Positions 1-63,254 of a stretch of 63,254 bases of DNA are shown piece by piece. The DNA comes from Cellvibrionaceae bacterium (GTDB lineage: Bacteria; Chloroflexota; Anaerolineae; Promineifilales; Promineifilaceae): the NCBI GenBank assembly GCA_047638855.1, contig JBLIMP010000001.1, forward strand, positions 1 through 63,254, in the 5' to 3' direction. Each line of letters begins with the position of its first letter. Position 1 is the first letter of the stretch. Position numbers and translations under genes: made by a program. Below the pieces are notes generated by a model. It was not told the DNA's origin and did no database searches. It saw nothing but the letters and a program-made list of their open reading frames with translations.

Positions 1-420
1 CGACTCAATCTGATCAAAGGGGGCGGTGGTGCTCTTTTACGCGAGAAGATCGTGGCACAAATGACCAAACGACTTGTCATTTGTGTAGATTCATCTAAGC
101 AAGTATCACTCTTAGGCGAAACTTGGGCTGTTCCTGTCGAAGTGGTTCACTTTGGATGGGAGTCGCAAAAACGATACTTAGAATCGATTGGTGCTACGGT
201 GCAAGTTCGCCAAGATGATAAAGGAGAGGCCTATCTAACCGATGGGGGCAACCTGATCCTCGATGCGAAATTCGGCCGGATATATAACATTCTTGCACTG
301 GAAACCAAGCTACAACGGCGAGTTGGCATCGTTGAAAGCGGCCTCTTTTTTGAAATGGCCCATGACCTCATTGTGGCAAGACCTGAAGGTGTCAAACACA
401 TTCAAGGACGAATTGCGTGA
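1..420 (+). CDS. rpiA: ribose-5-phosphate isomerase A, C-terminal ~140 aa (5' end outside the window)
   Basis: Frame 1 is open from nt 1 (RLNLIKGGGGALLREKIVAQ...) and runs into the 52..420 ORF. The GGGxALLREKI and TDGGNLILD motifs are typical of RpiA. Confidence 0.8.
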   Translation, partial: RLNLIKGGGGALLREKIVAQMTKRLVICVDSSKQVSLLGETWAVPVEVVHFGWESQKRYLESIGATVQVRQDDKGEAYLTDGGNLILDAKFGRIYNILALETKLQRRVGIVESGLFFEMAHDLIVARPEGVKHIQGRIA

Positions 421-1208
421 CTTTTTTAGGATACGGGGTTGATTTTTGGATCATCGCCTTTATCGCAGTTGCTCTAATCGGCTTATCGAAGGCCGGCTTT
501 GGAGGCGGTGTCGGGGCGATAGCCACCCCGTTAATGGCTCTGATCATGCCAGTGCCAGAAGCGGCCGCCTTGTTGCTCCCTATCTTGATTCTAGCTGATC
601 AAGCCGCTGTGTATAAATACAGAAATCGCTTTGACGCTAAAACGATTTGGGTGGCCCTGCCTGGGGCTATCATCGGGATCGGAATCGCATGGTTTGCATT
701 TGATCAGCTTCAATCGGCCGAAAACGAGCGGGCCTTGAAGATCGGCATCGGCGTTATTTCAATCGCTTTTCTTGTTTTTCAACTTTCTCGTGAATATGTT
801 TTCAAACGGATCGATGGGATCCGTCTTCCAGACTGGGCAGGTTTCGCTTTAGGCGCAACATCTGGATTCACCTCCACGTTAGCCCATGTGGGTGGCCCTC
901 CCTTCCATATTTATTTGATTCCACAAAAGCTCGATCGTGATATTTTTGTAGGCACCAACTCATGGATGTTTTGGGCAGTAAATTTAATCAAGCTCATCCC
1001 CTTTGGCTTTTTGGGGCTTTTAACCATTGGCAATTTAACGATCACGCTTGTGCTGATTCCGTTTGTGATCATGGGAGTTTATCTGGGCTTTTGGCTCAAC
1101 GGCCGAATGCGCCAAGATGTCTTTAATTGGATCATCTACATCCTATTGGCCGTAACCGGCGTGCAACTTATTTTAGGCCGTAGTTTGCTGAGTCTTATTC
1201 TGGGGTAG
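417..1208 (+). CDS. TauE/SafE (TSUP, DUF81) family anion exporter membrane protein
   Basis: 263 aa with multiple hydrophobic helices and the N-terminal LSKAGFGGGVG glycine motif typical of the family. The GTG start overlaps the rpiA stop (GTGA). Confidence 0.8.
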   Translation: MTFLGYGVDFWIIAFIAVALIGLSKAGFGGGVGAIATPLMALIMPVPEAAALLLPILILADQAAVYKYRNRFDAKTIWVALPGAIIGIGIAWFAFDQLQSAENERALKIGIGVISIAFLVFQLSREYVFKRIDGIRLPDWAGFALGATSGFTSTLAHVGGPPFHIYLIPQKLDRDIFVGTNSWMFWAVNLIKLIPFGFLGLLTIGNLTITLVLIPFVIMGVYLGFWLNGRMRQDVFNWIIYILLAVTGVQLILGRSLLSLILG

Positions 1209-1510
1209 AAATTTTTCAACTATTCAGCACCTATGCGTAGTAATGGCTTCAGCCGTTGTTTTTCCGATTAAAGCGACTCAAGTCGCACCTACAAACAGCA
1301 TGGGGGCCCTTTACAACTGAGTTTTACCCAACTTATGATTTCATGCCGATTTGGTAGCAGAATTGAGCCAAAGCACTTGAAACGTAACTAATTTAGATCG
1401 AACGGCTATTCTTAGAACCGAAAAAAGCATTTCGCCGTGTAAAAGGTGAGCCTAACAGATTCGTAGGTAGAATCATTCTAATTCAACTTTTAAATAGGAA
1501 GAGATTTAGG

Positions 1511-2632
1511 ATGATTTTAAATCAACAGCAAAAAGAAAAGATCATTGCTTTTGGGCACAAACTAATCGATCAAGAAAATGGCCGCATTGTTGTGCCTGCT
1601 ACGCAAGCCAAGAATGGCTTTTGGTTTGGTGGGGGAAACTTAACAGAGGGGGCTGACGGTAAACTATACCTGGTCGGCCGCTATCGCAACTTTGGCGATT
1701 CACGCACCGGGTTAGGCATGGGAGAACGGGGGCTGGAGCTGGCGATTTTCTGTTCAGAAGATCACGGTCAATCATTTGAAAAGGTGTTTTCAATGAGCAA
1801 AGCTGATTTATCCCGCCAGCACACGGCCGGATGGGAAACCCTCTCGATTGAAGGGGCCGCTTTGCATTTTAGTGAACATGGGGTTGAACTTTTTGTTTCA
1901 TCTGAGAAGAAAATAGGATATCCGGCTGAACTCGAAAATTACCTCAAGCCTGGCTCCGGCCGATGGACAATCGAGCAGGCGCAAGCCGCTACGCTCGACG
2001 AGCTAATGACTGCTCCTTTTAAGACAATTGTGGAAAGTGATGACCCTCGATGGCTGCACCCCAAAGATCCTTTCTTTAAAATTCAGCAGAACGGTGATCT
2101 GTTGCTTGGCTTTGTGACCCATCCTTTTAATTGGGCCGGATCAAATTCCGGCTATGCGGTGCGCAAAGCTGGGCAAGATGCGTTTGACCCGGCCGTGTTT
2201 GGCTTTTTTCCAACCGGTGTCACATGGGACATTGCGATTAGCCGCATCACCGGCTGGTTGCCGATTCCGCAGACCGGGGTTTTTGCCGATGGGGTGAGTC
2301 GGACGCTTGTCTTTTATGACGGTGGTGAATGTATGCGTGACTTGGATGAACATTCATCAGCGCTCAAACGGCCGCGTGGCTACTCTTGTGAAGAGCTAGG
2401 TGGGTTGGCGGTTGCAGACGCATCGGGCACGGCCGATTTTGAACGGCTATCGATTTTGGGACCATCGTTTGTTTCTCTGCATGGTAGTGGGTGTAGTCGC
2501 TATGTGGATGTGTTAGAAACGGCCGATGGCTATTACGCCACATGGCAGCAGTCTCAACCTGATTTTTCTCAGCCGCTGGTGATGAACTTTGTGAGCCGAG
2601 TCGAAGCGGAGAGGGTTTTAAGCCAACTCTGA
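1511..2632 (+). CDS. uncharacterised soluble protein with one Asp-box-like motif (possible beta-propeller fold)
   Basis: 373-aa ORF with a purine-rich stretch (AGGAAGAG) about 10 nt upstream of the ATG. SEDHGQSF resembles a BNR SxDxGxTW box. I do not recognise a family. Confidence 0.55.
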   Translation: MILNQQQKEKIIAFGHKLIDQENGRIVVPATQAKNGFWFGGGNLTEGADGKLYLVGRYRNFGDSRTGLGMGERGLELAIFCSEDHGQSFEKVFSMSKADLSRQHTAGWETLSIEGAALHFSEHGVELFVSSEKKIGYPAELENYLKPGSGRWTIEQAQAATLDELMTAPFKTIVESDDPRWLHPKDPFFKIQQNGDLLLGFVTHPFNWAGSNSGYAVRKAGQDAFDPAVFGFFPTGVTWDIAISRITGWLPIPQTGVFADGVSRTLVFYDGGECMRDLDEHSSALKRPRGYSCEELGGLAVADASGTADFERLSILGPSFVSLHGSGCSRYVDVLETADGYYATWQQSQPDFSQPLVMNFVSRVEAERVLSQL

Positions 2633-2649
2633 AAAACAAGCGTTTAGCG

Positions 2650-2686: not shown

Positions 2687-2699
2687 CTAATTCGTCCCA

Positions 2700-6527: not shown

Positions 6528-6537
6528 ATGAATGTTA

Positions 6538-6590: not shown

Positions 6591-7649
6591 TTATTCAGGT
6601 TTACCCTGAGCCAATTCAACGGCCGCACGCAGGTTTTTTACATAGGGTGCATGGATGATACCCACCTCGGTCACGATGCCGGTTACATACCGATGGGGTG
6701 TCACATCGAAGGCGGGATTGCGGGCGGTAATCCCTTCAGGAGCAATGGTTTTGCCAAAAACAGACACAACCTCTTCCATGCTTCGCTCTTCGATAGGGAT
6801 TTTGTCCCCATGATCCAGATCTAAGTCGATGGTGCTGGTTGGCACAACGGGGTAGAACGGGATTCCGTTTTCTTTTGCCAGTACGGCTACATTGTAGGTG
6901 CCGATCTTATTGGCAACGTCCCCATTGGCGGCCGTGCGGTCTGATCCAACCAAACAAATGTCAATTTCACCTGCACGCATAAAGTGGCCTGAGGCATTGT
7001 CGGCGATTAGATCAAACGAAACACCACGCTCTTTAAGCTCCCAGCAGGTGAGCCGAGCCCCTTGTAGGCGCGGCCGGGTTTCGTCAACCAACACATGGAT
7101 GTTTTTACCTTGCTCGTGAGCCGCATAAATCACACCTAAAGCTGTTCCCCAGTCAACTGTCGCAAGTGCGCCGGTGTTGCAGTGGTGCAAAATCGTGTCT
7201 CCGTCAGAGATCAACTCAGCCCCGTGAAATCCCATCCTGCGATTTAAAGCAACGTCATCGTCAGCGATTTTTTGCGCTTTTACAAGCAGTGCATTCCGTA
7301 TGTCATCGATGTGTTCGAGCGATTCATCGGTGACGACCCGCATTTGTTGAGCAACAGCCCACATGAGGTTAACGGCGGTCGGCCGGGATGCGTTTAGCAC
7401 GTCGGCCGCCTGCTCCATTTCAGCGATAAAGGCCAAACGATCGTTTGATTTAGCTTGCATTGCGGCTAAAACCATCCCGAAAGCGGCAGTTGCCCCGATG
7501 GCCGGTGCACCACGCACCACCATTGTGGTAATGCCTGTCGCCGTTGACTCATAATCTGAAAACTCTGCAATTTCAAACGACCAAGGGAGCTTGGTCTGGT
7601 CGGTCATTTTTAGTGTGTTGGAATCATAATCCCAATAGACGGTTCTCAT
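6591..7649 (-). CDS. mtnA: S-methyl-5-thioribose-1-phosphate isomerase
   Basis: N-terminus ...LKMTDQTKLP..., a VRGAPAIGATAAFG motif and an eIF-2B-like fold of typical length (352 aa). Confidence 0.85.
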   Translation of the reverse strand: MRTVYWDYDSNTLKMTDQTKLPWSFEIAEFSDYESTATGITTMVVRGAPAIGATAAFGMVLAAMQAKSNDRLAFIAEMEQAADVLNASRPTAVNLMWAVAQQMRVVTDESLEHIDDIRNALLVKAQKIADDDVALNRRMGFHGAELISDGDTILHHCNTGALATVDWGTALGVIYAAHEQGKNIHVLVDETRPRLQGARLTCWELKERGVSFDLIADNASGHFMRAGEIDICLVGSDRTAANGDVANKIGTYNVAVLAKENGIPFYPVVPTSTIDLDLDHGDKIPIEERSMEEVVSVFGKTIAPEGITARNPAFDVTPHRYVTGIVTEVGIIHAPYVKNLRAAVELAQGKPE

Positions 7650-9262: not shown

Positions 9263-10822
9263 TTACACTTCTCGAAATAGCTCACGGACCAGAAAATGCT
9301 GAATCTTCCCCATCGCATTTTTCGGTAGCTCATCGGTAAAAATATACGCTTTAGGGAGCTTGTAACGGGCCAATCGGCCTTGCATAAACTCACGCATTTC
9401 AGCTTCAGTTAGCGTTTTCCCCGGCTTGGCAGCAATAATCGCTACCGGAATCTCACCCCATTTTGTGTCCGGTCGGCCGATGAGCGCACACTCCGCCACC
9501 GCCGGATGTTCGTAGATCACTCGCTCAACTTCGGCCGCGTAAATGTTCTCGCTCCCTGAAATGATCATGTTTTTCTTGCGATCTTTGATGTACAGATACC
9601 CATCTTCATCCAGATAACCGATGTCGCCCGAGTGAAACCAGCCGACATTGTGGGCCTCATCCAACTGACCAGACAAACGACCAAATACTTCGGCTGTTGC
9701 TTCTGGGTTACGCCAGTATTCGACCATCACATTGGCCCCTTTGATCAATACTTCTCCCTCTTCATTGGGGCCAACTTCCTTCCCGTTACTACCCACGATC
9801 CTAATCTCGCTATATAGCCCTGCCATGCCCGTTGAGCCTGTTTTGCTAAAGTCAGAGTCCGGCCGATGATAAACCGATACAGGAGCTGTTTCGGTCAGGC
9901 CGTACATTTCCAAAACAGCGACACCTTGGTCGCGAAAACTGTCCGATAAATTCGTGGGAACTAATGTGGAGCCAGTGATGGTTAGACGCAAGTTTGAAAA
10001 GTCGGTTTTGTTCCAATGTGGCGAGGCGATGCAGGCGGCCATAATCGCCGGAACAACACAAGTCACAGTCGGCCGCTCCTGTTCGCTTGATCCAATCGAT
10101 TCCAAGATTTTATCTGGCACCACATTGTCATGCAGCGTCACCGTGGCTCCCACACAAAGCGCTGGTGTCGTTTGATTATTCAATCCACCCACATGGAAAA
10201 GCGGCAACATCGTGAGCACATGATCTTCGCTGGTTAGGTTCATCATATGGATGGCGTTGAACGCATTCCATTGCAGGTTGCTTTGGGTCAGCACGGCACC
10301 TTTCGGCCGGCCGGTAGTCCCTGACGTGTAAACCAGCATCAGCGGATCATCCAGCATGCCAATGGCTTTAGTTAATTTGGTCGATTGACCTAAATCTTGC
10401 CAAAATTTGCTGTTCGGGTTGTGAGTCGGCCGGTAATCAAGCCCAACCACTTGGCAAGATGGCAATTGTTCAGCCAGCGGCTTTTCGATAGAGTCAAACA
10501 GCTCTGTCACAAATAACACGCTCAATTCTGCGTTTTGCACAATGAACATAAGTTCGGGCAGAGCCAAACGCCAGTTTATCGGATTAAGAATCGCCCCCAG
10601 TTTGGCACAAGCGAAAAGTAAGCTCAAGAATTCCGGCCGGTTATGGCTCAAAATCCCAACACGATCCCCTTTCTTGATGCCTAGTTCATGCTGAAGAATG
10701 CTGGCAACCCGTTCAACTTCGGCCGCCATTTCACTGTAGCTCCATGTTTGATCATTAAAATGAAGAGCCGCTTTGTTTGGAGAAAAAGCAGCATTTGTTG
10801 TGACCCATTTTGAAAGATTCAT
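9263..10822 (-). CDS. AMP-dependent acyl-CoA synthetase/ligase
   Basis: YTSGTTGRPKGA AMP-binding motif and GWFHSGD/YIKDRKK motifs; 519 aa. Confidence 0.85.
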   Translation of the reverse strand: MNLSKWVTTNAAFSPNKAALHFNDQTWSYSEMAAEVERVASILQHELGIKKGDRVGILSHNRPEFLSLLFACAKLGAILNPINWRLALPELMFIVQNAELSVLFVTELFDSIEKPLAEQLPSCQVVGLDYRPTHNPNSKFWQDLGQSTKLTKAIGMLDDPLMLVYTSGTTGRPKGAVLTQSNLQWNAFNAIHMMNLTSEDHVLTMLPLFHVGGLNNQTTPALCVGATVTLHDNVVPDKILESIGSSEQERPTVTCVVPAIMAACIASPHWNKTDFSNLRLTITGSTLVPTNLSDSFRDQGVAVLEMYGLTETAPVSVYHRPDSDFSKTGSTGMAGLYSEIRIVGSNGKEVGPNEEGEVLIKGANVMVEYWRNPEATAEVFGRLSGQLDEAHNVGWFHSGDIGYLDEDGYLYIKDRKKNMIISGSENIYAAEVERVIYEHPAVAECALIGRPDTKWGEIPVAIIAAKPGKTLTEAEMREFMQGRLARYKLPKAYIFTDELPKNAMGKIQHFLVRELFREV

Positions 10823-44193: not shown

Positions 44194-44451
44194 TTCTCAA
44201 TCTCCTTTTTGAATAAATTAGCTGTCTGCTATTAATTTTAATCGGCCGATTGGCCTTTCTAATTTGTTCGACTACTGGTCTATCCATATCTACTCCTTTA
44301 TTGTTAAGCGGCATCGAAACGGCTAACTTCCAAAACACCGTTTCGAGCTCCAGCTATTCCTTCCAAAAATTCAATCACAACCTCACCGGATCGTTCCACA
44401 CGGTGAGCACGAGGCAAGGTGATAAATAACTAAAATAACTAGCTCTTCTTT

Positions 44452-45360: not shown

Positions 45361-45397
45361 TAAGTTTCTTTCCTTCTGTTTTACTTTTAAATCGAAT

Positions 45398-46922: not shown

Positions 46923-46924
46923 AT

Positions 46925-47800: not shown

Positions 47801-47820
47801 TAGATTAAATTAACCAACTC

Positions 47821-48747: not shown

Positions 48748-49139
48748 TTTCCTCCAATTTTGACCAAAATACGGTCATTCTTAATTAAAACGGGATAGGT
48801 TGTTAATTTAACTGCCTGATCAAAGAGACTACAACCGGTTAATAAATCAAATTCCCAGCCATGCCACGGACATCGCAATACTTGTCCTTCCATCCCCCAG
48901 ACATATTCACCAAATTCTGAGGGGACATAGGTGCCGCTTACATCACCTAAACAAACCGGTGCTTGATCGTGAATACAAGAATTTTTAATGGCACAAAATC
49001 GGCCGTCTACATTAAAAACGCCAATCGTTTGCTGTCCGACTTTTATTAGTTTTCTCTGGCCCGGCCGAATATCGGTTATTGGGCCCAAATCGTGCTCAGC
49101 CATAGGAAATTTTCGCACGGGCAACACAGTTTGATACAA
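48744..49139 (-). CDS. Rieske [2Fe-2S] domain protein (small ferredoxin-type)
   Basis: CIHDQ ... CPWHGWEF CxH/CxxH cluster ligands. An alternative start is at 49103. Confidence 0.8.
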   Translation of the reverse strand: MYQTVLPVRKFPMAEHDLGPITDIRPGQRKLIKVGQQTIGVFNVDGRFCAIKNSCIHDQAPVCLGDVSGTYVPSEFGEYVWGMEGQVLRCPWHGWEFDLLTGCSLFDQAVKLTTYPVLIKNDRILVKIGGK

Positions 49140-49153
49140 AAATGTGATAGCCC

Positions 49154-50254: not shown

Positions 50255-50309
50255 CTTTCGGCCTATATTCGGCCGCCTGTTATGACCTTTTTATCAGTCT
50301 ACAAGGGGC

Positions 50310-50990
50310 CTACACTGGAAAATCTTGCAACCGGAAATGAGCATGCATCGCGAATCGTGCAGCGACAACGTCGGCCGCACGCAACGCATCCACAATGCGC
50401 CGATGCTCAATCACGATCCGGTCTGGATTGCGTCGAATGGCAGATGGGTCTTCAGAGAGTGTTCGCCGAAACATGTCATAAACCAATGGCGCCATCTCTT
50501 CAATGACTTTGTTTTTGGTCGCTTTTAGCAACGCAAGGTGAAATTCAATATCTTCTTTGATTGTGCTTTTACCCGCACTATGCTTGTCTTCGTACACCTG
50601 AAGAATTTTCTCTAGATTGGTGATTTCACTTGGGGTGATACGACTAACGATCAAGCCAACCGCTCCGATTTCTAAAGCGGCGCGCGCTTCACGAACTTCT
50701 TTTGCTGTCGTATCAACTTGACTCACGGTAATCGGCATAGAGATATGGACCGCATGGCGATCAAATTTACTAACAAAGGTCCCTTTGCCAGCAAACTTTT
50801 CAACAACCCCTAGAGCCACAAGTGTGCTCAATGATTCACGAATGATATTACGGCTAACCGCAAGCATTTCGCTTAACTCACGCTCGCTGGGTAGCTGAGT
50901 GCCTTCGGCTAAATCTTCAGACAATATATAGCGTTTTAAGGTGTCTGCTGCCTGATGTGTTAAGGTGTCTTTGGATACAGCAGTTAACAT
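50310..50990 (-). CDS. GntR-family transcriptional regulator, FadR subfamily (FCD domain)
   Basis: N-terminal winged HTH (LPSERELSEMLAVSRNIIRESL) and an all-helical C-terminal domain; 226 aa. Confidence 0.85.
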   Translation of the reverse strand: MLTAVSKDTLTHQAADTLKRYILSEDLAEGTQLPSERELSEMLAVSRNIIRESLSTLVALGVVEKFAGKGTFVSKFDRHAVHISMPITVSQVDTTAKEVREARAALEIGAVGLIVSRITPSEITNLEKILQVYEDKHSAGKSTIKEDIEFHLALLKATKNKVIEEMAPLVYDMFRRTLSEDPSAIRRNPDRIVIEHRRIVDALRAADVVAARFAMHAHFRLQDFPV

Positions 50991-51148
50991 AGGATTGCAC
51001 TCCTATGTATTGAATGTGTTGAGGTGATGGTTTGGGATTTCATCTGATAATTATAGTGAGTCAGTTAAGCGTGCAATAACCGCTTACATAAGGGTTGCTG
51101 GGATATTATGTTTGCGAAGGTAGTTTCTGTTTGTCTGGAACCTTTGAG

Positions 51149-51175
51149 TGGTTCACTTGAAGTACCAGTATACCA
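51149..51175 (+). promoter_or_regulatory. 27-nt conserved box, candidate GntR operator (site 1, upstream of the GntR gene)
   Basis: TGGTTCACTTGAAGTACCAGTATACCA lies 159-185 nt upstream of the GntR start. It is identical to site 2 at 26/27 positions and contains the palindrome ACTTGAAGT and a GTATAC core. Confidence 0.45.
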
Positions 51176-51369
51176 AAAAGTATTTCATTCGCAACGCTTA
51201 CATCAGCTAGATCAGGGTGATGGCTGAACAAGTTTAGATTCCGCCGATTGAACAGCTAAAGAGCTTTAACTCTGTTTCATCTGTGGAAGAGTTGCTGATT
51301 GCAGGAAATGTTCTAGCCCAAGGAAAAAGCCTATGATGGCTGATTAATTGCGTTGGATTTAACCCTGAA

Positions 51370-53511: not shown

Positions 53512-53525
53512 TTCAGAAACCCCAA

Positions 53526-54500
53526 TTATTTTGACTGCGCATGGACCACATTTTCAAGTGGCTCGCCGCGATAATAACGGCCGATATTGTCCGCAATAAA
53601 CTCAAAACGATAGTTCATCGTTCCGTTTGTTGTCCCGGCGTTATGGGGTGTCATGATGATGTTAGGCAATTCATGAAACGGATAAGTTGCAGGGATGCAG
53701 ACCTCATCTAACGCATTTGGATAAATGTACCAGACGTCGTTTGCAGCCCCAGCGATCACTTTGTCTCGCAACCCTTCATATAAACTCTGCTCATCAACAA
53801 CTGGGCCACGAGCCACATTGACTAAATAGGCCGAATCCTTCATCATCTTGAGCTCTGCCTGACCGACAAATCCGGCCGTTTCGGCCGTATTCGGAATCGC
53901 CACAACGACAAAATCAGCCTGTGGCAAATAGTCGTGCATTTTTGTTAGGCTGTCGATTTGGTTGAGACCTAAGTGCTGACCACGTTCGGCCGATGGCGAA
54001 CGTGTGAGTCCAGTCACCTGCATTCCATAGAATTCCCCCCAGCGAGCCACTTCCGCCCCGATATGACCCAGCCCCAAAACAAGCAGATTACATCCTCGCA
54101 ACTCATTGCGAAACACGCCACCACTCCAGTTACCGGCTCGTAGCGCCGCATCTTGCTTAATCACTTCTCGTTTGAGCATCGCCATCGTCATAAAGCTATA
54201 TTCTGCAACCGCCCATTCGTGCCCGTAAACGTTGCAAACAGCACAGCTTGATGGCAATCCAGCAAAATCAATCCCTTCTGTCCCTGCACCAACCCCTTGT
54301 ACAAGCTTTAAAGGGGCATCTTTTTGGAGCCACTCACCCTTGACAAAAGAGCTAATCATGACATCTACGTCTCGAAGCTTATTTGAATAAGATTCATCGG
54401 TTTCTTTATTGAAAGATGTCAGCTCATGTGGGACTTGAATCAGTTTTCTGAACGTCTCAACGTACTTTTCTAAGACCAAAATACGGATCGGTTTCGTCAT
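53526..54500 (-). CDS. D-isomer-specific 2-hydroxyacid dehydrogenase
   Basis: GLGHIGAEVA NAD motif, NVARG and TPHNAG motifs; 324 aa. Confidence 0.85.
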   Translation of the reverse strand: MTKPIRILVLEKYVETFRKLIQVPHELTSFNKETDESYSNKLRDVDVMISSFVKGEWLQKDAPLKLVQGVGAGTEGIDFAGLPSSCAVCNVYGHEWAVAEYSFMTMAMLKREVIKQDAALRAGNWSGGVFRNELRGCNLLVLGLGHIGAEVARWGEFYGMQVTGLTRSPSAERGQHLGLNQIDSLTKMHDYLPQADFVVVAIPNTAETAGFVGQAELKMMKDSAYLVNVARGPVVDEQSLYEGLRDKVIAGAANDVWYIYPNALDEVCIPATYPFHELPNIIMTPHNAGTTNGTMNYRFEFIADNIGRYYRGEPLENVVHAQSK

Positions 54501-54522
54501 TTCAAACTCCTTTGATCAGGTG

Positions 54523-55659
54523 CTATGACCTTGTTTTTAAGAGGGCGTATCGGATGTGGGTAATAGACATTTCGGTACACCAAAAACTAAAGAGAATATC
54601 TCCATTGTTCAGCAGATTGGCGGTTGGGGCACCGTAGGCGATTGTGTCGTGAGAGCGTGGATAAGATTCTGGCGCGTCGATGCCCAATCGCTCCCGGCCG
54701 GTTGCGTCCCAAACAACAATTTGGTTGGCGATGTCCCACGTTAAGCCCCAATCGTCAGAGACACAAGCGAAAAAACCAGGAGATGTTTGTTCTCTTGAGG
54801 TATAGATGGCCACAAATCGGCCGTCGCCCAAATCAACCACTGCGTTGGTCTGCCCCAGAATATTGGTGGCCTCTGGAGTACTCCATTCACGGCTGTCGGC
54901 TGTTCCAAAACAGCGGTGAAGCGGAAGGTCGCCCATCGGGTCGCTCATTTCTGCGCTCCAAAAAAGGGCAAAGAGACGTTGATCAGTCAACGGTGTGATT
55001 CGGCCGTGCCAAAAACCTTTGCCCTCTGCCGAACCATTGGCAAAAGAAACCGGTGCATTCCATGTTTTCCCTTTGTCATCAGAAAAGAATCCCACCGTTC
55101 GAGGCTTATAAGGGCCAGGATCGTCAAACGCGTGCCACTGGTCATGGGCTAAAAACCAACGGCCATCTGGCAATTCAACAATGGCCGAACTTGGTGTAAT
55201 GACCATATCAGCCGGTACACCGATTGTTTCAGGCGGTGACCAGGTTACCCCTTTATCGGCTGAGCGTTGCAAAATCAGCTCCAGCTCAGTTAGACCCCCC
55301 GTTTTCTCATTGAAAATCGGCCGATTTGGATCAGAACGATCAACCCGAAACGCTACAAAAACGAGCAACCCATCTCGCATATGAGATATGAACGGACTGT
55401 GATAAGAGTAGGGGCGGTCGTCCAAACTGCGATCAGTGATGAGGGTATGGTCACCCCAAGTTCGGCCGCCATCGTGCGAACGTGCCTGCCAAAAGCTGAG
55501 ATCGGTGGCATACATCCCTTGGCCTCGGTTATAGGTACACAGGAGTTCATCTCCGTCCAAAGGGACGATATGGCTAAAAAGGGCGGTTACATGGGTATAA
55601 CCTGGATCTGGGTTGAGATAAATCGGTCCGCTGCTTAGCAATTCAAGTTTACTCATCAT
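54523..55659 (-). CDS. BNR/Asp-box (sialidase-fold) propeller protein, no signal peptide
   Basis: Four Asp-boxes: SHDGGRTW, SADKGVTW, SDDKGKTW and SDDWGLTW; 378 aa. Confidence 0.75.
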   Translation of the reverse strand: MMSKLELLSSGPIYLNPDPGYTHVTALFSHIVPLDGDELLCTYNRGQGMYATDLSFWQARSHDGGRTWGDHTLITDRSLDDRPYSYHSPFISHMRDGLLVFVAFRVDRSDPNRPIFNEKTGGLTELELILQRSADKGVTWSPPETIGVPADMVITPSSAIVELPDGRWFLAHDQWHAFDDPGPYKPRTVGFFSDDKGKTWNAPVSFANGSAEGKGFWHGRITPLTDQRLFALFWSAEMSDPMGDLPLHRCFGTADSREWSTPEATNILGQTNAVVDLGDGRFVAIYTSREQTSPGFFACVSDDWGLTWDIANQIVVWDATGRERLGIDAPESYPRSHDTIAYGAPTANLLNNGDILFSFWCTEMSITHIRYALLKTRS

Positions 55660-55664
55660 TTCTC

Positions 55665-56879
55665 CTAAAAAAGTTGCTCCCCACTCTCTAAATATTTTTC
55701 ACAAACAGATTCGTTAAGCGTCAGTCCCAAACCGGGTTCATCGTTCAAAACGATATGCCCATCTTCAAATAGAGGTAATCCACCTCGATCAGCAATCTGT
55801 CCGATCCATGGGGCATTGTGCCAATGGTATTCGAGCCCGATAAAGTTGGGGCTGGCGGCCGCCACATGGGCACAAGCGATGACGCCCAACGCACAGCTAT
55901 TGTTGTGCAGCGCCATCGGCAAATAGTTAAGATCAGCGTAATCAGCGATTTTGCGCGTCTCAAACAATCCACCTGAAAAAAGAATGTCGGGATGGATCAT
56001 GTCGCAAGCACCACGATCGATAAAAAGGCGAAATTGTTCGGCCACAAAGGTTTCGCCAAGGCAAATCGGGATCGGGCTTTTTTCTCGAATGGCCACGCAG
56101 GCATCAGGGTTGGTGACAGGCGTTGGGTCTTCAAACCATTTTAGATTTAGGTGAGCCAACGCTCGGGCCAAACGAATCGATGACGGGACATCATATTGCA
56201 TGTGCCCATCAATGGAGATTTCCATATCTGGGCCAACGGCATTGCGCACGGCCGTCAAGCGTTCAACGATTTTGTTGATTTGGGGCAACGTTAAACTTTT
56301 GTTCCAAGGATCGTTGGGATAGTCAGTTGCGGCATAATCGATGTCAAACTTGATGTCGGTAAAACCTTGTTCCTGCGCATCGAGAGCAAGCTTGCGCCAC
56401 GCCTCTAAATCATTGAGGTCGGCCGGACTGCTACGATCAAGATAAACGAGCAAACGATCTCGATACTTTCCGCCAAGCAGGTTGTAAACGGGGGTGTTGA
56501 GCGCCTTGCCGACCAGATCGCACAGAGCCATCTCAACCCCACTTACCGCCCAGACGACCGGTCCAAACGGAGTGGCACTGGCTGATTGACTCGGTTCATG
56601 CGGCGGAAGGCCTCCGTAAAGCATGGCTGTAACAAACGGCCGGATGGTAAAAGGATCTTTACCGATTAAATATTCCTTCATTTTGCCCATAATCAATTGG
56701 CGAACGCCTAAGGTTTGATTTTGGAAATGGGCCGCTTCACCCAAGCCGTACAGCCCTGAGTCGGTGTCGATCCGCACCAGTAAAATATGCCAATCCCGTC
56801 CTTGCCCGCCGATGCCATGTGCATCTGGGCCAACCATCGCCATGGTGCGTACATTAGTTATTTTCATCAGCTTGTCCAT
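55665..56879 (-). CDS. enolase-superfamily enzyme (mandelate racemase/muconate lactonizing family)
   Basis: MKITNV... capping domain and barrel ligand pattern (IDGHM, WFEDP, GET); 404 aa. An alternative start is at 56867. Confidence 0.85.
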   Translation of the reverse strand: MDKLMKITNVRTMAMVGPDAHGIGGQGRDWHILLVRIDTDSGLYGLGEAAHFQNQTLGVRQLIMGKMKEYLIGKDPFTIRPFVTAMLYGGLPPHEPSQSASATPFGPVVWAVSGVEMALCDLVGKALNTPVYNLLGGKYRDRLLVYLDRSSPADLNDLEAWRKLALDAQEQGFTDIKFDIDYAATDYPNDPWNKSLTLPQINKIVERLTAVRNAVGPDMEISIDGHMQYDVPSSIRLARALAHLNLKWFEDPTPVTNPDACVAIREKSPIPICLGETFVAEQFRLFIDRGACDMIHPDILFSGGLFETRKIADYADLNYLPMALHNNSCALGVIACAHVAAASPNFIGLEYHWHNAPWIGQIADRGGLPLFEDGHIVLNDEPGLGLTLNESVCEKYLESGEQLF

Positions 56880-57201
56880 TTATATTTGCCGGTTCGATGC
56901 GTTCGAGCAAGAAGAAGACCGGCCGGAACCCGTCCGTACAATTGGTTACAAAAACCCCTGGTTTAACCCCCAACATATTGCCACCACGGGCTAGCACCAT
57001 CACATATTTCTGAATGTCGGTCCAAGCCCAATCACTAAACCCTTCAGGCATATGGCCGTCTGAAATAAAGCTGTGCCCCACAGGGAAACTGTGACAACAT
57101 CCCTCCGGTTTCCATGCAACCCCTTCAGTGTAGGCGTCAGCAAAATCTTGATTAAACGTTTTCTTTAACACGGTAATGCGCACTTGATAAGGGGTTAACA
57201 T
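56854..57201 (-). CDS. TIGR04076-like small Cys-containing protein
   Basis: The pattern VRITVLKKTFNQDFADAY...MPEGFSDWAWTDI...TNCTDGFRPVFFLLERIE matches my memory of TIGR04076 family proteins. Its 3' end overlaps the downstream enolase gene start by 14-26 nt. Confidence 0.55.
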   Translation of the reverse strand: MLTPYQVRITVLKKTFNQDFADAYTEGVAWKPEGCCHSFPVGHSFISDGHMPEGFSDWAWTDIQKYVMVLARGGNMLGVKPGVFVTNCTDGFRPVFFLLERIEPANINGQADENN

Positions 57202-57245
57202 TTTGCTCTTCTCCTTTTCCTTTCCTTTCTTTTCAGCCTGCTCAG

Positions 57246-58133
57246 TTATCCGTAATCGATTTTCAAGGTGTAGCGTGGGTCTTCATGTAAGGCCCAATAG
57301 CCATCTTGAAATTTCTGCGTCATTGGCCCTATCATGCCCGAACCGATCAATTGATCATCGATTTTTGTGATCGGCATAATGCCTCCGGCCGTGCTTGTGA
57401 TAAATACCTCGTCAGCATTGCGAATCTCATCAGCCGACAAGTCACCTTCTACAATTTTGGTACCAAAATCGGCCGCCAAACCGATTGTCGTTTGTCTTGT
57501 AATTCCTTGTAGAATGCCTGTAGCTGGGGTTGTGATTATTTCCCCTTTGACCGAGAAGATATTAAAGCCTGGCCCCTCTTTCAAATACCCGTATTGGTCA
57601 ACAAGTGCGGCCGTTTCACCCCCTCGATCATATGCTTCAAACTGCCCCATCACCAAGTCGAGCCAATGATAGTTTTTTACGGTAGGATCAATTGACTCGG
57701 GAGCGATACGTTGCTGTTTACTGATGATCATGTGCAGCCCAGTTTCCGGTTTAGTCACCCAAATAAACGGAACCGCAAAAGCATAAAATCGATTGGCGCA
57801 TGTTCTGGGATCTCGTGATCCGGGTGCTGGTAGCCCTCGGGTCACAATCATTTCGACGTAGGCATCACGCAGGCCGGTTTTCTTCACACAATCGGTCAAA
57901 ATCGCAGATAATTCTTGGCGGTTGTAGGGAATTGACATCCGTAATACTTCCATCCCAGCAAAGAAACGATCAAAATGATCGTCAAGCCGAAAAAAGCGTC
58001 CCTTCCAAACATGCGAAACATCATAAGTCGCATCTGAATGGAGAAAGCCCCAATCAAGGAGCGAGATTTTCGCCTCTGTAATTGGAACGAATTTTTCGTC
58101 AATAAAGGCTGTTCCCCTGGAATAATCAGGCAT
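57246..58133 (-). CDS. class IV aminotransferase (branched-chain/D-amino-acid type)
   Basis: The N-terminal FIDEKFVPITEAKISLLDWGFLHSDATYDV pattern and a length of 295 aa are typical of fold-type IV PLP enzymes. Confidence 0.8.
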   Translation of the reverse strand: MPDYSRGTAFIDEKFVPITEAKISLLDWGFLHSDATYDVSHVWKGRFFRLDDHFDRFFAGMEVLRMSIPYNRQELSAILTDCVKKTGLRDAYVEMIVTRGLPAPGSRDPRTCANRFYAFAVPFIWVTKPETGLHMIISKQQRIAPESIDPTVKNYHWLDLVMGQFEAYDRGGETAALVDQYGYLKEGPGFNIFSVKGEIITTPATGILQGITRQTTIGLAADFGTKIVEGDLSADEIRNADEVFITSTAGGIMPITKIDDQLIGSGMIGPMTQKFQDGYWALHEDPRYTLKIDYG

Positions 58134-58209
58134 GTTTTCTTTTCCTTAAAGAGTGCTTGATAAATAGCATTAGTATAGATTTTTCCCAGACGGACATATT
58201 GTCGTAAGG

Positions 58210-58270
58210 GCGGAAGGGGTCGGGAAATACCCTCTCTCTTCGGAGCCAAGATGGTTCCGACCCCTTCCGC
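58210..58270. other. GC-rich long hairpin (14-bp perfect stem, 33-nt loop)
   Basis: GCGGAAGGGGTCGG ... CCGACCCCTTCCGC. It shares the GGGGTCGG core and the loop length with the 60253 hairpin. Confidence 0.8.
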
Positions 58271-58287
58271 ACCTACTAAATTTCAGG

Positions 58288-59124
58288 TCAACCCCAACGA
58301 GATGGGCTTAAACCGGCCGCACCATCTGCCATCACGGCCGGTTTATTGGCGACATTAAAATCAGCTTTGCGAATGTTTCGGTCGATAAAGTACGGCCGGA
58401 TGTTATCTGGTAAGGTGGCGATTTTAGCCTCGTCCCACTGAGCCACTTTTGGCAAGATGGGCCCCCCCCAAGCTGGTCGGTAAGCGATGGCCAGCATGCG
58501 CCGATCATAACCGCCTACATTTGGGAAATTTCCGTGGAAGACTTTGTGATTGAGCAAAAGGGCTGATCCGGCCGAAGCGGTCACCATCACCTCTTCAGGG
58601 TGGCTGGCATAGCGTTTATATGGATTCGCATCAGCGTTTAGCGAAAGATGAGAGCGGGGAACCACTTTGAATGGAGAGACTTCAGGGGTTAGGTCATCTA
58701 AATAGTAGAGGACTCGAATGATGATTGGGCAACTGCCTTCATAGCCAAATATCTCTGAACCATACGGCTGGCCGTCGGTGTGTAAACTTATCCCAGGATG
58801 GCCAGGTTCTGAGACCGCATAGGCATAGGTCATGAAGACAAGTTCATCGTTCAAAAGCTCTTTAACAAAATTTATTACGGGTGGATGATCGATTAATTGA
58901 GTAGCGGCACCCCCGCTAAACTGCATATTGCCACGGGTGCGCTGATGCACGCTGTAATCCATTGGGGTCGTTTCTAAATCGGCCGTTTCAGCCCTTAGCT
59001 GTGTCAGCAGTTCGGCCGGTAGAACATCTGGCAAAACCAGATACCCATCCACTTCTAAACTGCGGATCTGCTCCCCACGTGTCAATTTTGACCAATCTTG
59101 ATTGTCAATTTGTTTGTTATCCAT
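58288..59124 (-). CDS. PhyH-family Fe(II)/2-oxoglutarate dioxygenase
   Basis: HTDG (HxD) plus a later VFHGNF His; LVLPDVL N-terminal pattern; 278 aa. Confidence 0.7.
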   Translation of the reverse strand: MDNKQIDNQDWSKLTRGEQIRSLEVDGYLVLPDVLPAELLTQLRAETADLETTPMDYSVHQRTRGNMQFSGGAATQLIDHPPVINFVKELLNDELVFMTYAYAVSEPGHPGISLHTDGQPYGSEIFGYEGSCPIIIRVLYYLDDLTPEVSPFKVVPRSHLSLNADANPYKRYASHPEEVMVTASAGSALLLNHKVFHGNFPNVGGYDRRMLAIAYRPAWGGPILPKVAQWDEAKIATLPDNIRPYFIDRNIRKADFNVANKPAVMADGAAGLSPSRWG

Positions 59125-59198
59125 TTGTTGAAACCTTCGGTTTTTTAGCCGTCAGCTATCAGCTATTAGCCAAAAGCTGGGAACTGACGGCTGTTAGC
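59125..59198. repeat. TAGC/AGCT-word spacer with a 9-bp hairpin AGCCGTCAG/CTGACGGCT
   Basis: TTAGCCGTCAGCTATCAGCTATTAGCCAAAAGCTGGGAACTGACGGCTGTTAGC. The stem is 59147-59155 paired with 59184-59192. Confidence 0.8.
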
Positions 59199-60200
59199 TT
59201 AAGTAAGGGGGAACAGTTGCTTGGCGTTGTTGTAAAAGATGTCTTCAATTTGACTGTCTTTTAATTTGAGCCGTTGACACGCTAGACGAATGCTCCGAAT
59301 CGACTCTAAGCCAACCAAGACCGGTTTCAGGGTCGTATGTTTTTCGCCTAAATCCATATCGTTCGCATAAAACCAGTGGAACGAGTCGCCAATAGCGATA
59401 CACCGGCCGCGAATGTGGCTGACATGAAAATCGGTTCCATACATCAATTTGTGATGCCCCATCGTTTCAATAATCGCTTCAAATGCTCCTGCTTCGGTCA
59501 CGGCAGAACTATCAAACCAGACGTTTTCTAACCCTTTTAGGCTGTGAATCCCTTCGATCGTATGCCACGGGTTAAAGCCACGGGCGGCATGGGCCAAAAT
59601 CAACTGCATCTTGGGATAGGTTTCGCAGTAGCGTCGGATCGTCGCTTGATTAATCGGGTCAGCCAATGCCCGATCTCGCACCATGTGGAGCGTAATCGTT
59701 AAACCTAGCTCATGGGCTACCTGAATGTGCTTCTCTGGCAAGTAGGCTTCGATGGGTGCATCCCATGTGGGGCCATCCATGACCGCCATCGTGTGATAGC
59801 ACTTTAAGCCGACCATGCCTAAGCGTTTGACTTCACTTGCCACATATTCAGCCGTCATATCGGGTGAGATCAGCATTTGGCCAAAACAATTTTCGCCGAG
59901 GGGCCCGCTGACTTCGGCCGCAATATATTCGTTATTGCCAACGCGATCTCCGTTCATAGCCAGGCCAAAAAACAGCCCCCCTTTGGTACGCCCTTTTGGA
60001 TGAATCCATTCGCTGTAATCATAAAATTCTGCCAACCCTTGCGGATTGGGGGTGTCGGCAAAGCCAGCCAAGTCTCCTTTCGGAAAATGGCTGTGCAAAA
60101 ACAAGTGGGCGTGTGAATCAAAAATTTTGTCAGGTAAAAACGGCTCCACCTCACGCTCCACCATCAGTCGATCTTCGTCTGTAAATTTCCAGCTAACCAT
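59199..60200 (-). CDS. Amidohydro_2 family protein
   Basis: IFDSHAHLF N-terminal metal motif, ILAHA and a late GTDFH motif; 333 aa. Confidence 0.7.
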   Translation of the reverse strand: MVSWKFTDEDRLMVEREVEPFLPDKIFDSHAHLFLHSHFPKGDLAGFADTPNPQGLAEFYDYSEWIHPKGRTKGGLFFGLAMNGDRVGNNEYIAAEVSGPLGENCFGQMLISPDMTAEYVASEVKRLGMVGLKCYHTMAVMDGPTWDAPIEAYLPEKHIQVAHELGLTITLHMVRDRALADPINQATIRRYCETYPKMQLILAHAARGFNPWHTIEGIHSLKGLENVWFDSSAVTEAGAFEAIIETMGHHKLMYGTDFHVSHIRGRCIAIGDSFHWFYANDMDLGEKHTTLKPVLVGLESIRSIRLACQRLKLKDSQIEDIFYNNAKQLFPLT

Positions 60201-61569: not shown

Positions 61570-61674
61570 AAGGCCAACCCCGAAAAATAATTATCTAGCA
61601 AACTAGGTCAGGGGTTGGCTGTGAGGCGATTTTGTTGATGCAATTGCATGTTTTATTCTCGGAAATCGCCTCAC
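61570..61674 (+). repeat. copy B of a two-hairpin intergenic repeat (most intact copy)
   Basis: Hairpin 1 is GCCAACCCC/GGGGTTGGC (9 bp, 29-nt loop). Hairpin 2 is GTGAGGCGATTT/AAATCGCCTCAC (12 bp), with a loop containing the perfect palindrome ATGCAATTGCAT. Confidence 0.85.
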
Positions 61675-61797
61675 TAGAACGAGGATAAGCCCAACGCAAA
61701 TTCCGGTTTTAGGCGTTATGTTTGGAGAGAAGCATATGGCTGGAAATTATCACGAGAAGGGATTAGTCTAATGTGTGATCAAGGTCAAGCTGCCTTG

Positions 61798-63240
61798 TCA
61801 CGATGAGAAGCCGAGAAGGCTAGGAGGTTGCCAGCCCCCATATTTTGATTCTAAATATTCAAGTACCCCCAGCACAACATCCTCGCGCCATGCGTTCGCA
61901 GCAACCTGGATACCCAACGGTAGCCCCTCCGTTGACGTGCCGGTGCGGACTGTGCCACACGGCCAGCCGGTTAGATTAAATGGCACTACATAGCTGAACA
62001 TAGGGTCAAAACCAGCATAAGCAGGATCAAGCATCGTTTCCCCATGTGCCACGGCCGCTACCGGTGCTACAGGGCAGATAATCACATCATAATCAGCCAT
62101 GAAGACCGACATTCGTTGCCGGAATTGATCAAGTTTATAGAGCCAGCCGCCAAATTCACCAGCCGTGAGTTGATGTTGCTGTTGGGCCGCTTGCGCCCGT
62201 TTTGTGTATCGATGCGCTTCAGCGGTGCCCCAACTTTTGAGTAGTTCTCCAAGTCCAACACCGCCATCGGCCGAGAGCAAGTGAACGTAAATCTCGTGTG
62301 CCTCATGAATCATGGATGGGCGGATGTGTGAAACAGTTGCCCCCGCCTGCGCCAGCGTATCTGCGCACTGAGCCACCATACCCCCGATTTCTGAAGTAGG
62401 GGAGACGACCCCATTATCTGCAAAGAAAGCGACACGTAGGCTCGCTAAATCGACATTTCCAAGTTGAGGAAAGGCGACAGGAACGCTGGACGGATCGCGC
62501 GGATCGGGGCCACAGATGAGAGGGAGGGCGAGTGACAGATCGGCCGCTGAACGGGCCATGAGGCTCATTTGCCAGAAGGGATTGATAAAGCCCCCAGGTG
62601 GCGGCATATGGCCGATTTTGGCCGTGCGCCCTGTCGTCGGTTTGATACCGGCGATCCCGCAGCAATGGGACGGCCAGCGAACACTGCCGCCACCGTCTGT
62701 CGCCAGGCCAAGGGGTGAGCCACCTGCTGCAATGAGAGCCGCCTCACCCCCGCTGCTACCCCCGCAAGTACGGGAAAGATCGTATGGATTATTGGTCCGG
62801 CCGTAAAGCAGGTTGTCCGTTTCATAGCCTAGTCCAACTTCAGGCAGATTGGTTTTGCCGAGTAAAATACCGCCAGCGGCCCGGATGCGCGCAACAACAA
62901 TTGCATCTTCTGCGGGTATATTCTGCGCAAGCCCCGTGCTACCACAGCCGCAAACGACACCTTGGGTCTCGATATTGTCTTTGACAGTAAAGGGGACACC
63001 GTGTAGCGGTCCAACCTTTTTCCCTTTGGCTATGTCCGCATCGGCCGCATCTGCTTGGGCCAGCGCTTTGACAGCGGCCGATTGGACCAAGGCATTAATG
63101 GCGGGGTTGACAGCGTTGATTTGACCTATGTGTGCTTGTACAACTTCTCTAGCCGAGACGGTTTTATCTTGAATGGCAGCGGCCAATGTACGAGCGGAAG
63201 CGAATGTAAGTTGTTCCATTGGATTGTTATACCTCTTCAA
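61798..63240 (-). CDS. amidase (amidase-signature family, GatA-like)
   Basis: GGSSGG signature with a conserved upstream K and a Ser-cisSer context; 480 aa. Confidence 0.9.
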   Translation of the reverse strand: MKRYNNPMEQLTFASARTLAAAIQDKTVSAREVVQAHIGQINAVNPAINALVQSAAVKALAQADAADADIAKGKKVGPLHGVPFTVKDNIETQGVVCGCGSTGLAQNIPAEDAIVVARIRAAGGILLGKTNLPEVGLGYETDNLLYGRTNNPYDLSRTCGGSSGGEAALIAAGGSPLGLATDGGGSVRWPSHCCGIAGIKPTTGRTAKIGHMPPPGGFINPFWQMSLMARSAADLSLALPLICGPDPRDPSSVPVAFPQLGNVDLASLRVAFFADNGVVSPTSEIGGMVAQCADTLAQAGATVSHIRPSMIHEAHEIYVHLLSADGGVGLGELLKSWGTAEAHRYTKRAQAAQQQHQLTAGEFGGWLYKLDQFRQRMSVFMADYDVIICPVAPVAAVAHGETMLDPAYAGFDPMFSYVVPFNLTGWPCGTVRTGTSTEGLPLGIQVAANAWREDVVLGVLEYLESKYGGWQPPSLLGFSS

Positions 63241-63254
63241 TAGGATTATCTTTA

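Follow-up and report, generated by a model that had tools for sequence, protein, structure and literature searches.

CGGCCG forms a HIP-type iterated palindrome system in a clade of Chloroflexota

Results

A contig dense in CGGCCG

The stretch of contig JBLIMP010000001.1 (assembly GCA_047638855.1) from position 1 to 63,254, hereafter the window, is filled with copies of one palindromic hexamer, CGGCCG. Its GC content is 48.7%, and heuristic calling gave 57 long open reading frames (ORFs), with 90.6% of the window coding. We counted 227 overlapping CGGCCG matches, or 3.59 per kb, distributed over 56 of the 57 long ORFs and three intergenic positions. The original prediction, made from the sequence alone, had put the count at about 225 and likened the word to highly iterated palindrome 1 (HIP1) of cyanobacteria. 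All eight coordinates that it quoted and their contexts are correct, doublets at 10304, 15642 and 49786 included, as are its three codon phases by the present ORF calls; it had listed two intergenic sites where we find three (16094, 44243 and 50270). The features referred to below are as follows, with related loci given handles of the form L001.

6591–7649, minus strand: MtnA-like gene with 5 CGGCCG, the phylogenetic marker used to fetch and order 160 related loci
10304–10313, no strand: overlapping doublet CGGCCGGCCG, by sequence match
15642–15651, no strand: overlapping doublet CGGCCGGCCG, by sequence match
16094–16099, no strand: intergenic CGGCCG by ORF calls, absent from the earlier list
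25610–26407, plus strand: short-chain dehydrogenase-like ORF, the densest gene of the window by site count (8 CGGCCG, 10 per kb)
41230–42192, minus strand: the sole long ORF without CGGCCG, with zero permissive peptide contexts
42325–60200, minus strand: block syntenic with the nearest relatives, L167 and L168, by comparison with both
44243–44248, no strand: intergenic CGGCCG, by ORF calls
49786–49797, no strand: adjacent doublet CGGCCGCGGCCG, by sequence match
50270–50275, no strand: intergenic CGGCCG, by ORF calls
51370–53511, minus strand: NHL-repeat protein gene with 12 CGGCCG, by site count

The window sequence recurs identically in independent assemblies, namely an NCBI metagenome-assembled genome (MAG; GCA_047613795.1, fragmented), three Joint Genome Institute (JGI) metagenomes and two Sequence Read Archive (SRA) runs. 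The metagenomes with the window's population are JGI 3300055003, 3300054698 and 3300055002, and the runs are SRR28416755 and SRR28417640. One metagenome contig runs 2 kb past the left edge of the window at equal CGGCCG density. Contigs of the window's population are nearly identical, and no single-nucleotide polymorphism falls inside a CGGCCG.

Markov models of order 0, 1 and 2 predict 13.1, 18.1 and 34.3 copies of CGGCCG in the window, so that the excess over the two simplest models is 13–17-fold. CGGCCG is the most frequent hexamer by a wide margin: the best non-overlapping word has 68 copies, and the next most enriched hexamers all overlap CGGCCG. Its 7-mer and 8-mer extensions show no excess over their maximal-order Markov expectation; hence, the repeated unit is exactly 6 bp. 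This comparison had been proposed in the original prediction, and it served to fix the unit. As a null for CGGCCG itself it was discarded, because the motif accounts for most occurrences of its own 4-mer and 5-mer sub-words (227 of 285 GGCCG lie inside sites) and the ratio is just 1.35.

Codon-aware nulls fall far below the 225 sites observed in coding sequence. Within-gene synonymous shuffling gave 33.4±5.1 sites (maximum 54 in 500 trials; z≈38), resampling codons from window-wide usage gave 30.9±5.1, and shuffling codon order gave 23.6±4.4. These nulls are conservative, because CGGCCG itself raises the usage of GCC, GGC, CGG and CCG. A codon-usage-preserving shuffle was the test by which the original prediction had proposed to be refuted, and the prediction stands. 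Gaps between neighboring sites have a coefficient of variation of 0.91, so spacing is near random.

Several other palindromic hexamers of the window depart from codon-aware expectation. TCCGGA (1 versus 15–18), CTGCAG (1 versus 13.5) and CCGCGG (2 versus 18–20) are strongly depleted, as are CTCGAG (1 versus 8.6), GGATCC (2 versus 16) and CGATCG (6 versus 24), a pattern that looks like exposure to restriction. Mild enrichment is seen for ATCGAT (2.6-fold), ACCGGT (2.25-fold) and TGATCA (2-fold).

The excess is independent of reading frame, protein and coding status

Three kinds of peptide context can encode CGGCCG: Arg-Pro; Ser, Pro, Thr or Ala followed by Ala and then Val, Ala, Asp, Glu or Gly; and any residue with an NNC codon followed by Gly-Arg. 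Across the window, 225 of 361 such permissive contexts (62%) are spelled CGGCCG, with occupancy even from gene to gene. By codon phase (0, 1 and 2) there are 38, 120 and 67 sites, at occupancies of 0.70, 0.57 and 0.71. Arg-Pro pairs are written CGGCCG in 38 of 54 cases, against about 5% predicted from codon usage outside the motif. The one long ORF that lacks the word, at 41230–42192, lacks any permissive context and is therefore no exception to the rule.

Intergenic DNA follows the same pattern. The 5.96 kb between genes have a GC content of 40.9% and hold 3 CGGCCG against 0.4–0.8 expected, so the scarcity of intergenic sites in the original prediction is an effect of composition and reflects no real coding preference. 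A coding-specific process was rejected, since the intergenic deficit vanishes after correction for local GC and is absent from pooled relatives. Over 32 related loci, the observed-to-expected ratio (O/E) is 5.95 in intergenic and 5.04 in coding DNA; this match across the clade indicates that the process acts on DNA itself. Frame independence together with non-coding enrichment argues against a cause at the level of protein or translation. The occurrence of sites in genes of both strands, which had also been offered as evidence, carries no information, because a palindrome reads identically in every mRNA. Thus, the CGGCCG excess is a DNA-level property, independent of reading frame, encoded protein and coding status, and the claim of a HIP1-like iterated palindrome that is no by-product of proteins or codon usage is borne out by the nulls, the phases and the clade distribution described below.

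An amino-acid-level drive was examined in one protein with a deep alignment and rejected as non-significant (5/34 versus 79/679, p=0.37). In the NHL-repeat gene, V459A and P616A (both GCC) are residues private to the window among 119 homologues, and each completes a CGGCCG. Gly-Arg, spellable as GGC CGN, outnumbers Arg-Gly in the window proteome by 109 to 61 (ratio 1.8); the ratio is 1.37 in the hyper-abundant clade and 1.16–1.18 in avoiding and neutral relatives. This asymmetry, which is suggestive only, may mean that protein sequences have been shifted by the DNA word.

Hyper-abundance is a heritable trait of one clade, with avoidance next door

Best matches to the MtnA-like protein in genome and metagenome scans reach at most 76% identity and come from MAGs labelled Promineifilaceae, Ardenticatenaceae, Anaerolineae or Chloroflexota. 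The nearest relatives of the window in a collection of 5.8 billion proteins stand at 78–79% amino-acid identity. We placed 160 MtnA loci, each representing its genome by 2–22 kb, on a neighbor-joining tree; as this is a single-protein tree, a "neighboring" clade is meant loosely. Expectations in relatives come from an order-1 model, with codon shuffles in eight loci only.

One hyper-abundant clade takes in about 45 loci; CGGCCG is nearly always their top or near-top hexamer, at O/E of about 3–9, and the window is the extreme of this clade, at 12.6. The word ranks this high in about 30 related genomes. Nested within the clade are a neutral subclade (L026, L027 and L029) and a subclade without the word (L009, 0 versus 15.7 expected). 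On deeper branches of the tree CGGCCG is neutral (O/E 0.99). A large neighboring Anaerolineae clade holds 2 CGGCCG against 236 expected in about 430 kb, with none in 24 of 26 loci, and CGGCCG is the most avoided there of all 64 palindromic hexamers. Its loci include L031, L034, L035, L037, L039, L043–L045, L051–L054, L056, L057, L060, L073, L096 and L101.

CGGCCG hyper-abundance is therefore a heritable trait of one clade of Chloroflexota, class Ardenticatenia in the NCBI taxonomy (the Promineifilales/Ardenticatenales neighborhood), which supplies the lineage that the original prediction could not name. That one class holds the same word at both extremes would be puzzling if proteins of CGGCCG specificity were not common there.

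Avoidance this near to complete over such deep branches is unusual in its own right. Other near-absent palindromes in the avoiding clade are GGGCCC (O/E 0.04), CTCGAG (0.08), GAGCTC (0.10), CGATCG (0.12) and GGATCC (0.12). A few labels look at odds with the sequences that they name: L006 is titled "Patescibacteria group bacterium" yet shares 90% identity over 21 kb with L003, which is labelled Chloroflexia, and L056, L062 and L113 are labelled Pleurocapsa (a cyanobacterium) yet group with Anaerolineae. Mis-binning is a possible cause in each case (L006, L056, L062/L113).

Lineages use palindromic dialects of the word

Relatives write the word in distinct dialects, each a perfect palindrome of 6–10 bp:

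ACGGCCGT: top 8-mer in eight chromosomal loci (L010, L012, L014–L017, L032 and L088) and in L167 and L168, 10–35 copies per locus
AACGGCCGTT: commonest 10-mer in L010, L012, L016, L023 and L030, 7–13 copies
CACGGCCGTG: L001, 8 copies
GCGGCCGC (NotI site): L022, 53 copies in 21 kb
CCGGCCGG: L024, 46 copies, 27 of them CCCGGCCGGG
TGCCGGCA: L009, which has no CGGCCG, 23 copies in 21 kb

Pooled O/E is 81 for ACGGCCGT, 69 for GCGGCCGC, 27 for CCGGCCGG and 16 for TGCCGGCA. All dialect words survive the codon-preserving shuffle (for example, 31 versus 2.7 and 53 versus 5.3), including TGCCGGCA in L009, with 23 observed against 1.8. In L009, with L021 and L050, the core word has been replaced by TGCCGGCA inside the hyper-abundant clade.

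Where one dialect has a site, the other dialects have a near-cognate word in the alignment and not the site itself; thus, each lineage wrote its own set. Among one-off variants in the ACGGCCGT group, enrichment is confined to the outer positions 1 and 8 (O/E 4.3), and internal variants are depleted (0.5–0.7). The bare 6-mer of the window shows no such bias, with every position at about 0.8–1.1.

Degenerate forms show a further pattern. RGGCCY is depleted in the window (17 versus 59.5) and in most loci of the hyper-abundant clade (0 versus 18 in L032; 0 versus 9.8 in L001). YGGCCR words other than CGGCCG (TGGCCG, TGGCCA) are 2–4-fold enriched in many lineages, basal ones included, and TGGCCA is near zero in L001, L016, L028 and L088. 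YGGCCR may be the true degenerate word of basal lineages, although transition decay from CGGCCG explains the enrichment equally well; the RGGCCY/YGGCCR pattern as a whole could reflect such decay or additional specificities.

Sites are retained at orthologous positions

We compared retention of the words at orthologous positions with that of GC-matched control palindromes, following the logic of Xu et al.; the pairs are phylogenetically non-independent, and the effects are large.

ACGGCCGT, five genomes at about 80% nucleotide identity: 180/214 kept (84%); controls 18/119 (15%)
CGGCCG, L167 versus L168 at 92% identity: 80/85 kept (94%); controls 44/113 (39%)
TGCCGGCA, L009 group: 10/13 kept (77%); controls 2/13 (15%)

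In the syntenic block at 42325–60200, where nucleotide identity is 70%, 15 of 26 CGGCCG sites of L167 are also CGGCCG in the window, against 12% of control hexamers. Of 18 aligned ACGGCCGT sites of L167, the window has the full 8-mer at 3 and the 6-bp core at 10. Its neighbors on the MtnA tree mostly use the ACGGCCGT dialect, and site density is 3.6 per kb in the window versus about 1.9 per kb in its nearest relatives. On the simplest reading of these alignments, the window lineage would have relaxed from an 8-bp to a 6-bp specificity, after which site density roughly doubled.

Phage and plasmid-like DNA carries the word

Viral contigs in IMG/VR were scanned for closely spaced pairs of ACGGCCGT; 120 loci were returned, about 20 of them very rich in the word. 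Phage and plasmid-like or integrative and conjugative element (ICE)-like contigs (L169, L183, L186/L289/L290, L235, L252, L260, L287 and L233) hold 2–3.7 ACGGCCGT per kb at O/E above 100. L169 is a genuine phage fragment, with a small terminase and a DnaC-like loader, and has 44 ACGGCCGT in 14.7 kb against 0.34 expected. L186/L289 is a 100-kb plasmid-like element, assembled in two different permutations and hence probably circular, that encodes an integrase, ParA, an FtsK-type translocase and an SLT transglycosylase. L186 holds 49 ACGGCCGT in 13.2 kb and L289 holds 71 in 21.3 kb, with 20 of these 71 in 3.6 kb of non-coding DNA. The FtsK-like protein of this HIP-rich element has no named homologues and so does not assign a host. 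If restriction cut the word in the hosts, invaders would be expected to avoid it, yet its density in these contigs equals or exceeds that of chromosomes. Two further contigs are rich in the bare hexamer, with 45 CGGCCG in 5.9 kb (L205) and 93 in 15 kb (L283).

L235 has 47 ACGGCCGT in 13 kb and carries ParB, a DndC/PAPS-reductase-like gene and a methyltransferase-like ORF. Profile matches locate two of these:

L235 2546–3640: partial N6_Mtase / Type I methyltransferase match
L235 12024–13187: DndC/PAPS-reductase-like protein

Together, L235:36–13187 looks like a gene set of DNA-modification type.

Search for the machinery

We scanned all loci (about 2 Mb of related DNA) for motifs and searched the candidates against Pfam, PADLOC and NCBIfam. 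No C5, N4 or N6 DNA methyltransferase was found in the window or the roughly 20-kb chromosomal loci, and no ORF with a GCFWH-type Vsr motif or with C5 methyltransferase motifs I/IV in the window or related DNA, a small part of each genome. A recurrent ORF with the motif [DNS]PP[YFW] is a metallophosphoesterase.

A 291-aa ORF of the window (31059–31934, minus strand) matches the PADLOC defence candidate PDC-S13 (E=1.4e-90) and, faintly, a Type I specificity subunit, with no match in Pfam or NCBIfam. Three more ORFs, at 1511–2632, 20201–21721 and 22365–23456 (373, 506 and 363 aa), have no matches in Pfam, NCBIfam or PADLOC.

Comparison with HIP1 and other word systems

HIP1 (GCGATCGC) occurs in cyanobacteria at 300–2700 copies per Mb, 15–300-fold over-represented (PMC4390886; PMC5861425). 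It has been linked to CGATCG and GATC methyltransferases, and Elhai found its one-off variation concentrated at the outer positions (PMC4390886). It is kept by selection, and Xu et al. argue against pure replenishment (PMC5861425). HIP1 raises transformation and recombination only if methylated.

The Chloroflexota word shares most of these features. It is a GC-rich perfect palindrome, present at 3590 per Mb in the window, with ACGGCCGT at about 1480 and GCGGCCGC at about 2520 per Mb in their lineages; it occupies all frames and non-coding DNA; and it is clade-wide with exceptions, variant or alternate words taking its place in relatives. The nesting of GATC in CGATCG in GCGATCGC is paralleled by GGCC in CGGCCG in NCGGCCGN, with extensions to 10 bp. 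One-off variants at outer positions (in the ACGGCCGT group) and orthologous retention above control palindromes (in relatives) are common to both.

The differences are also clear. The phylum is Chloroflexota and the word is CGGCCG, whereas CGATCG is depleted in the window (6 versus 24). The window's unit is a bare 6-mer with O/E of 13–17, compared with 15–300 for HIP1, at the low end as expected for a 6-mer. HIP1 has been tied to methyltransferases, whereas none was found here in the window or in the roughly 20-kb chromosomal loci. A neighboring clade avoids the same word completely, and mobile elements equal or exceed chromosomes in enrichment. As for the chromosomal periodicity of HIP1 (period 10–90 kb), a 63-kb window is too short to display it, and local spacing is near random. 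The phenomenon thus passes every HIP-defining test that we ran and is a HIP-type system, though not HIP1 proper.

HIP1-poor cyanobacteria have alternate HIPs (GGGATCCC, CAGGCCTG, TCGATCGA, GCsGC and rCCGGy). As there, the dominant palindrome here has been swapped for a related word (ACGGCCGT/GCGGCCGC/CCGGCCGG) or an unrelated one (TGCCGGCA in L009) that is conserved per lineage. Unlike there, most lineages here share a fixed 6-bp core, and L009/L021/L050 have purged the old core to zero.

DNA uptake sequences (DUS) of Neisseria and uptake signal sequences (USS) of Pasteurellaceae are hyper-abundant short non-palindromic words with lineage dialects, tied to a known receptor and competence. The Chloroflexota words resemble them in density (at least about 1 per kb), in their lineage dialects and in plausibly accumulating by fixation bias; they differ in that all variants are perfect palindromes of 6–10 bp. 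In E. coli, Dcm/Vsr enriches CCWGG and depletes CTWGG, and the effect is small. A mechanism tied to a methyltransferase recognition site raises the count of a cognate word there and may do so here, but the excess here is at least 7-fold over a codon-aware null, and T-neighbor depletion is absent in the window.

CGGCCG and GCGGCCGC coincide exactly with the Type II restriction-modification specificities of EagI/XmaIII and NotI, respectively; we know of no characterised enzyme to which ACGGCCGT, CCGGCCGG or TGCCGGCA could be attributed. The zero counts of the avoiding clade look like restriction avoidance, and the window is hyper-abundant instead: depletion of a restriction site is found in the avoiding clade (2 versus 236) and in L009 (0 versus 15.7), and its opposite in the window. 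The preferred site of Dnd phosphorothioation in Streptomyces lividans is GpsGCC within CGGCCG (PMC6435447). The palindrome is the same, but no dnd cluster was found here, and motif enrichment is not known in Dnd hosts. Our search of open-access papers and preprints turned up neither a CGGCCG-type iterated palindrome nor any HIP outside cyanobacteria; a description may exist elsewhere.

Discussion

Our data demonstrate a DNA-level fixation bias for a two-fold-symmetric word, one that is heritable within a clade, can change specificity, maintains its sites and is shared with mobile DNA. With moderate confidence, we read CGGCCG as a HIP-type element that is written by point mutation, actively kept, and read by a sequence-specific DNA enzyme system of two-fold symmetry. 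Thousands of independent point substitutions, mostly synonymous, would write CGGCCG into the genome, and a cognate modification enzyme would mark the sites. The likeliest marker, by the precedent of HIP1, would be an EagI-type and possibly orphan cytosine methyltransferase, whose drift in specificity would yield the dialects; of the possible marks, such methylation asks for the fewest assumptions. Marked alleles would then be fixed more readily by virtue of some process that reads the mark, whether by selection or by a conversion that favors the cognate word. Candidate readers are the recombination and repair of incoming and damaged DNA, or the discrimination of self from foreign DNA. The near-zero count in the neighboring clade would be the restriction side of the same specificity.

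Several observations weigh against this account. Modification of the sites is itself something that we infer, and the window and chromosomal loci gave no gene for a methyltransferase, a restriction enzyme or Vsr and no Dnd cluster, an absence that is uninformative at about 20 kb per genome. In basal pairs with a bare 6-mer, pooled, 61% of CGGCCG are kept versus 48% of controls, and between L003 and L006 (21 kb, 89.8% identical) retention shows no excess, at 57–61% versus 54–60%. CGGCCG is about 5-fold enriched in the L003/L006 lineage despite this control-level retention, and the basal word could be either a relic in decay or one that turns over. The closest relative of the window stands at 79% amino-acid identity, so retention in the window itself is known only indirectly. 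Retention data cannot separate selection from a conversion-type drive, and the HIP-rich viral contigs carry no assigned hosts.

Foremost among the alternatives is a neutral mutational ratchet, in which a context-specific mismatch-repair bias (Vsr-like, or the methyl-directed mismatch-repair ratchet of Elhai) converts near-cognate words into sites that have no function. The synonymous opportunities for the word are close to saturated, coding and non-coding DNA are enriched alike, the sites of one dialect face near-cognate words in others, and site turnover between L003 and L006 proceeds at about the background rate, all as such a ratchet would have it; phages and plasmids replicating in the cell would meet the same bias. 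The neighbors of the word tell against it. In the window, the C-to-T neighbors are the least depleted (TGGCCG/CGGCCA 0.92, CAGCCG/CGGCTG 1.09, CGACCG/CGGTCG 0.80), with transversion neighbors at 0.42–0.68, which is the opposite of the Dcm/Vsr signature. The biased short-patch repair named as a driver in the original prediction thus lacks its simple Vsr signature here, TGGCCG, CGGCTG and CGGTCG being the words least depleted; in the ACGGCCGT group, T-neighbor counts are too small for such a signature. Vsr makes only T-to-C changes, whereas the sites required all kinds of substitution, transversions included. Retention of 84–97% against 15–39% in controls is the type of result that Xu et al. read as against pure replenishment, and the examined DNA contains no ORF with a Vsr motif. 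We consider the ratchet unlikely.

A second alternative dispenses with modification. A transformation or conjugation protein would prefer the word, and molecular drive through biased uptake and recombination would spread it, a mechanism that has been suggested for DUS/USS and, more recently, for HIP1. The lineage dialects resemble those of Neisseriaceae DUS, density is about 1.5–3.6 per kb, conjugative-type and phage DNA is equally rich or richer, and HIP1 both raises transformation efficiency and correlates with DNA-transfer machinery. Known uptake sequences, however, are non-palindromic 9–12-mers, and here strict palindromy survives every dialect change, which points to a dimeric or restriction-modification-type recogniser. 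Total avoidance in the neighboring clade is a restriction-type signature, and the transformation effect of HIP1 depends on methylation. On this balance an unmodified uptake signal is quite improbable.

A third possibility keeps the logic of the modification model but replaces the methyl group by a Dnd-type phosphorothioate, GpsGCC within CGGCCG. It draws on the preferred Dnd site of S. lividans, a CGGCCG palindrome with a GGCC core, and on the HIP-dense contig L235, in which a DndC/PAPS-reductase-like gene lies beside ParB and a methyltransferase-like ORF. That DndC-like match scores 103–114 bits, however, against an NCBIfam curated cut-off of 290–536, and no locus contains a dnd cluster. The gene may belong instead to the IbrA/ParB gene-pair type, which is not Dnd. 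To our knowledge, phosphorothioate systems modify just a fraction of their sites and are not known to enrich a motif. We give this variant little weight. The pattern is scarcely credible as an artefact, be it of composition or codon usage, of a recurrent peptide or dispersed repeat family, or of assembly, given codon-aware nulls of 24–33 against 225 observed, no extended conservation of flanks, sites in 56 unrelated genes and all phases, identical sequence in independent assemblies and orthologous conservation of sites in relatives.

A broader proposal, which we put forward tentatively, is that HIP-type genome tagging extends beyond cyanobacteria. It may have arisen independently in Chloroflexota around an EagI/NotI-type core, with dialects evolving, phages and conjugative elements copying the tag and neighbors purging the word; it would then belong to a general, unrecognised class of systems, related to restriction-modification, that mark self DNA for recombination, repair or defence.

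There are practical consequences. EagI or NotI would shred these genomes unless modification protects the sites. CGGCCG biases k-mer-based binning and codon models, and it offers a sensitive way to recognise contigs, phages and plasmids that belong to this clade.

What HIP1 does and how it arose have been argued over for about thirty years with one phylum as the sole example, and a second, independent case widens what is testable. This system is more informative than another HIP1 genome would be, as its core is fixed while its flanks evolve, one relative has purged the core and uses another word, a neighboring clade avoids CGGCCG completely, and enriched mobile elements, both phages and plasmids, can be compared. 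Specificity shifts here between 6, 8 and 10 bp, with one replacement of the core, and the avoiding relatives are a built-in negative control. The machinery could be identified by asking, across genomes, which methyltransferase or reader specificities track the dialects. Should the tag prove to label DNA as self for recombination, uptake or defence, the finding would reach beyond both phyla.

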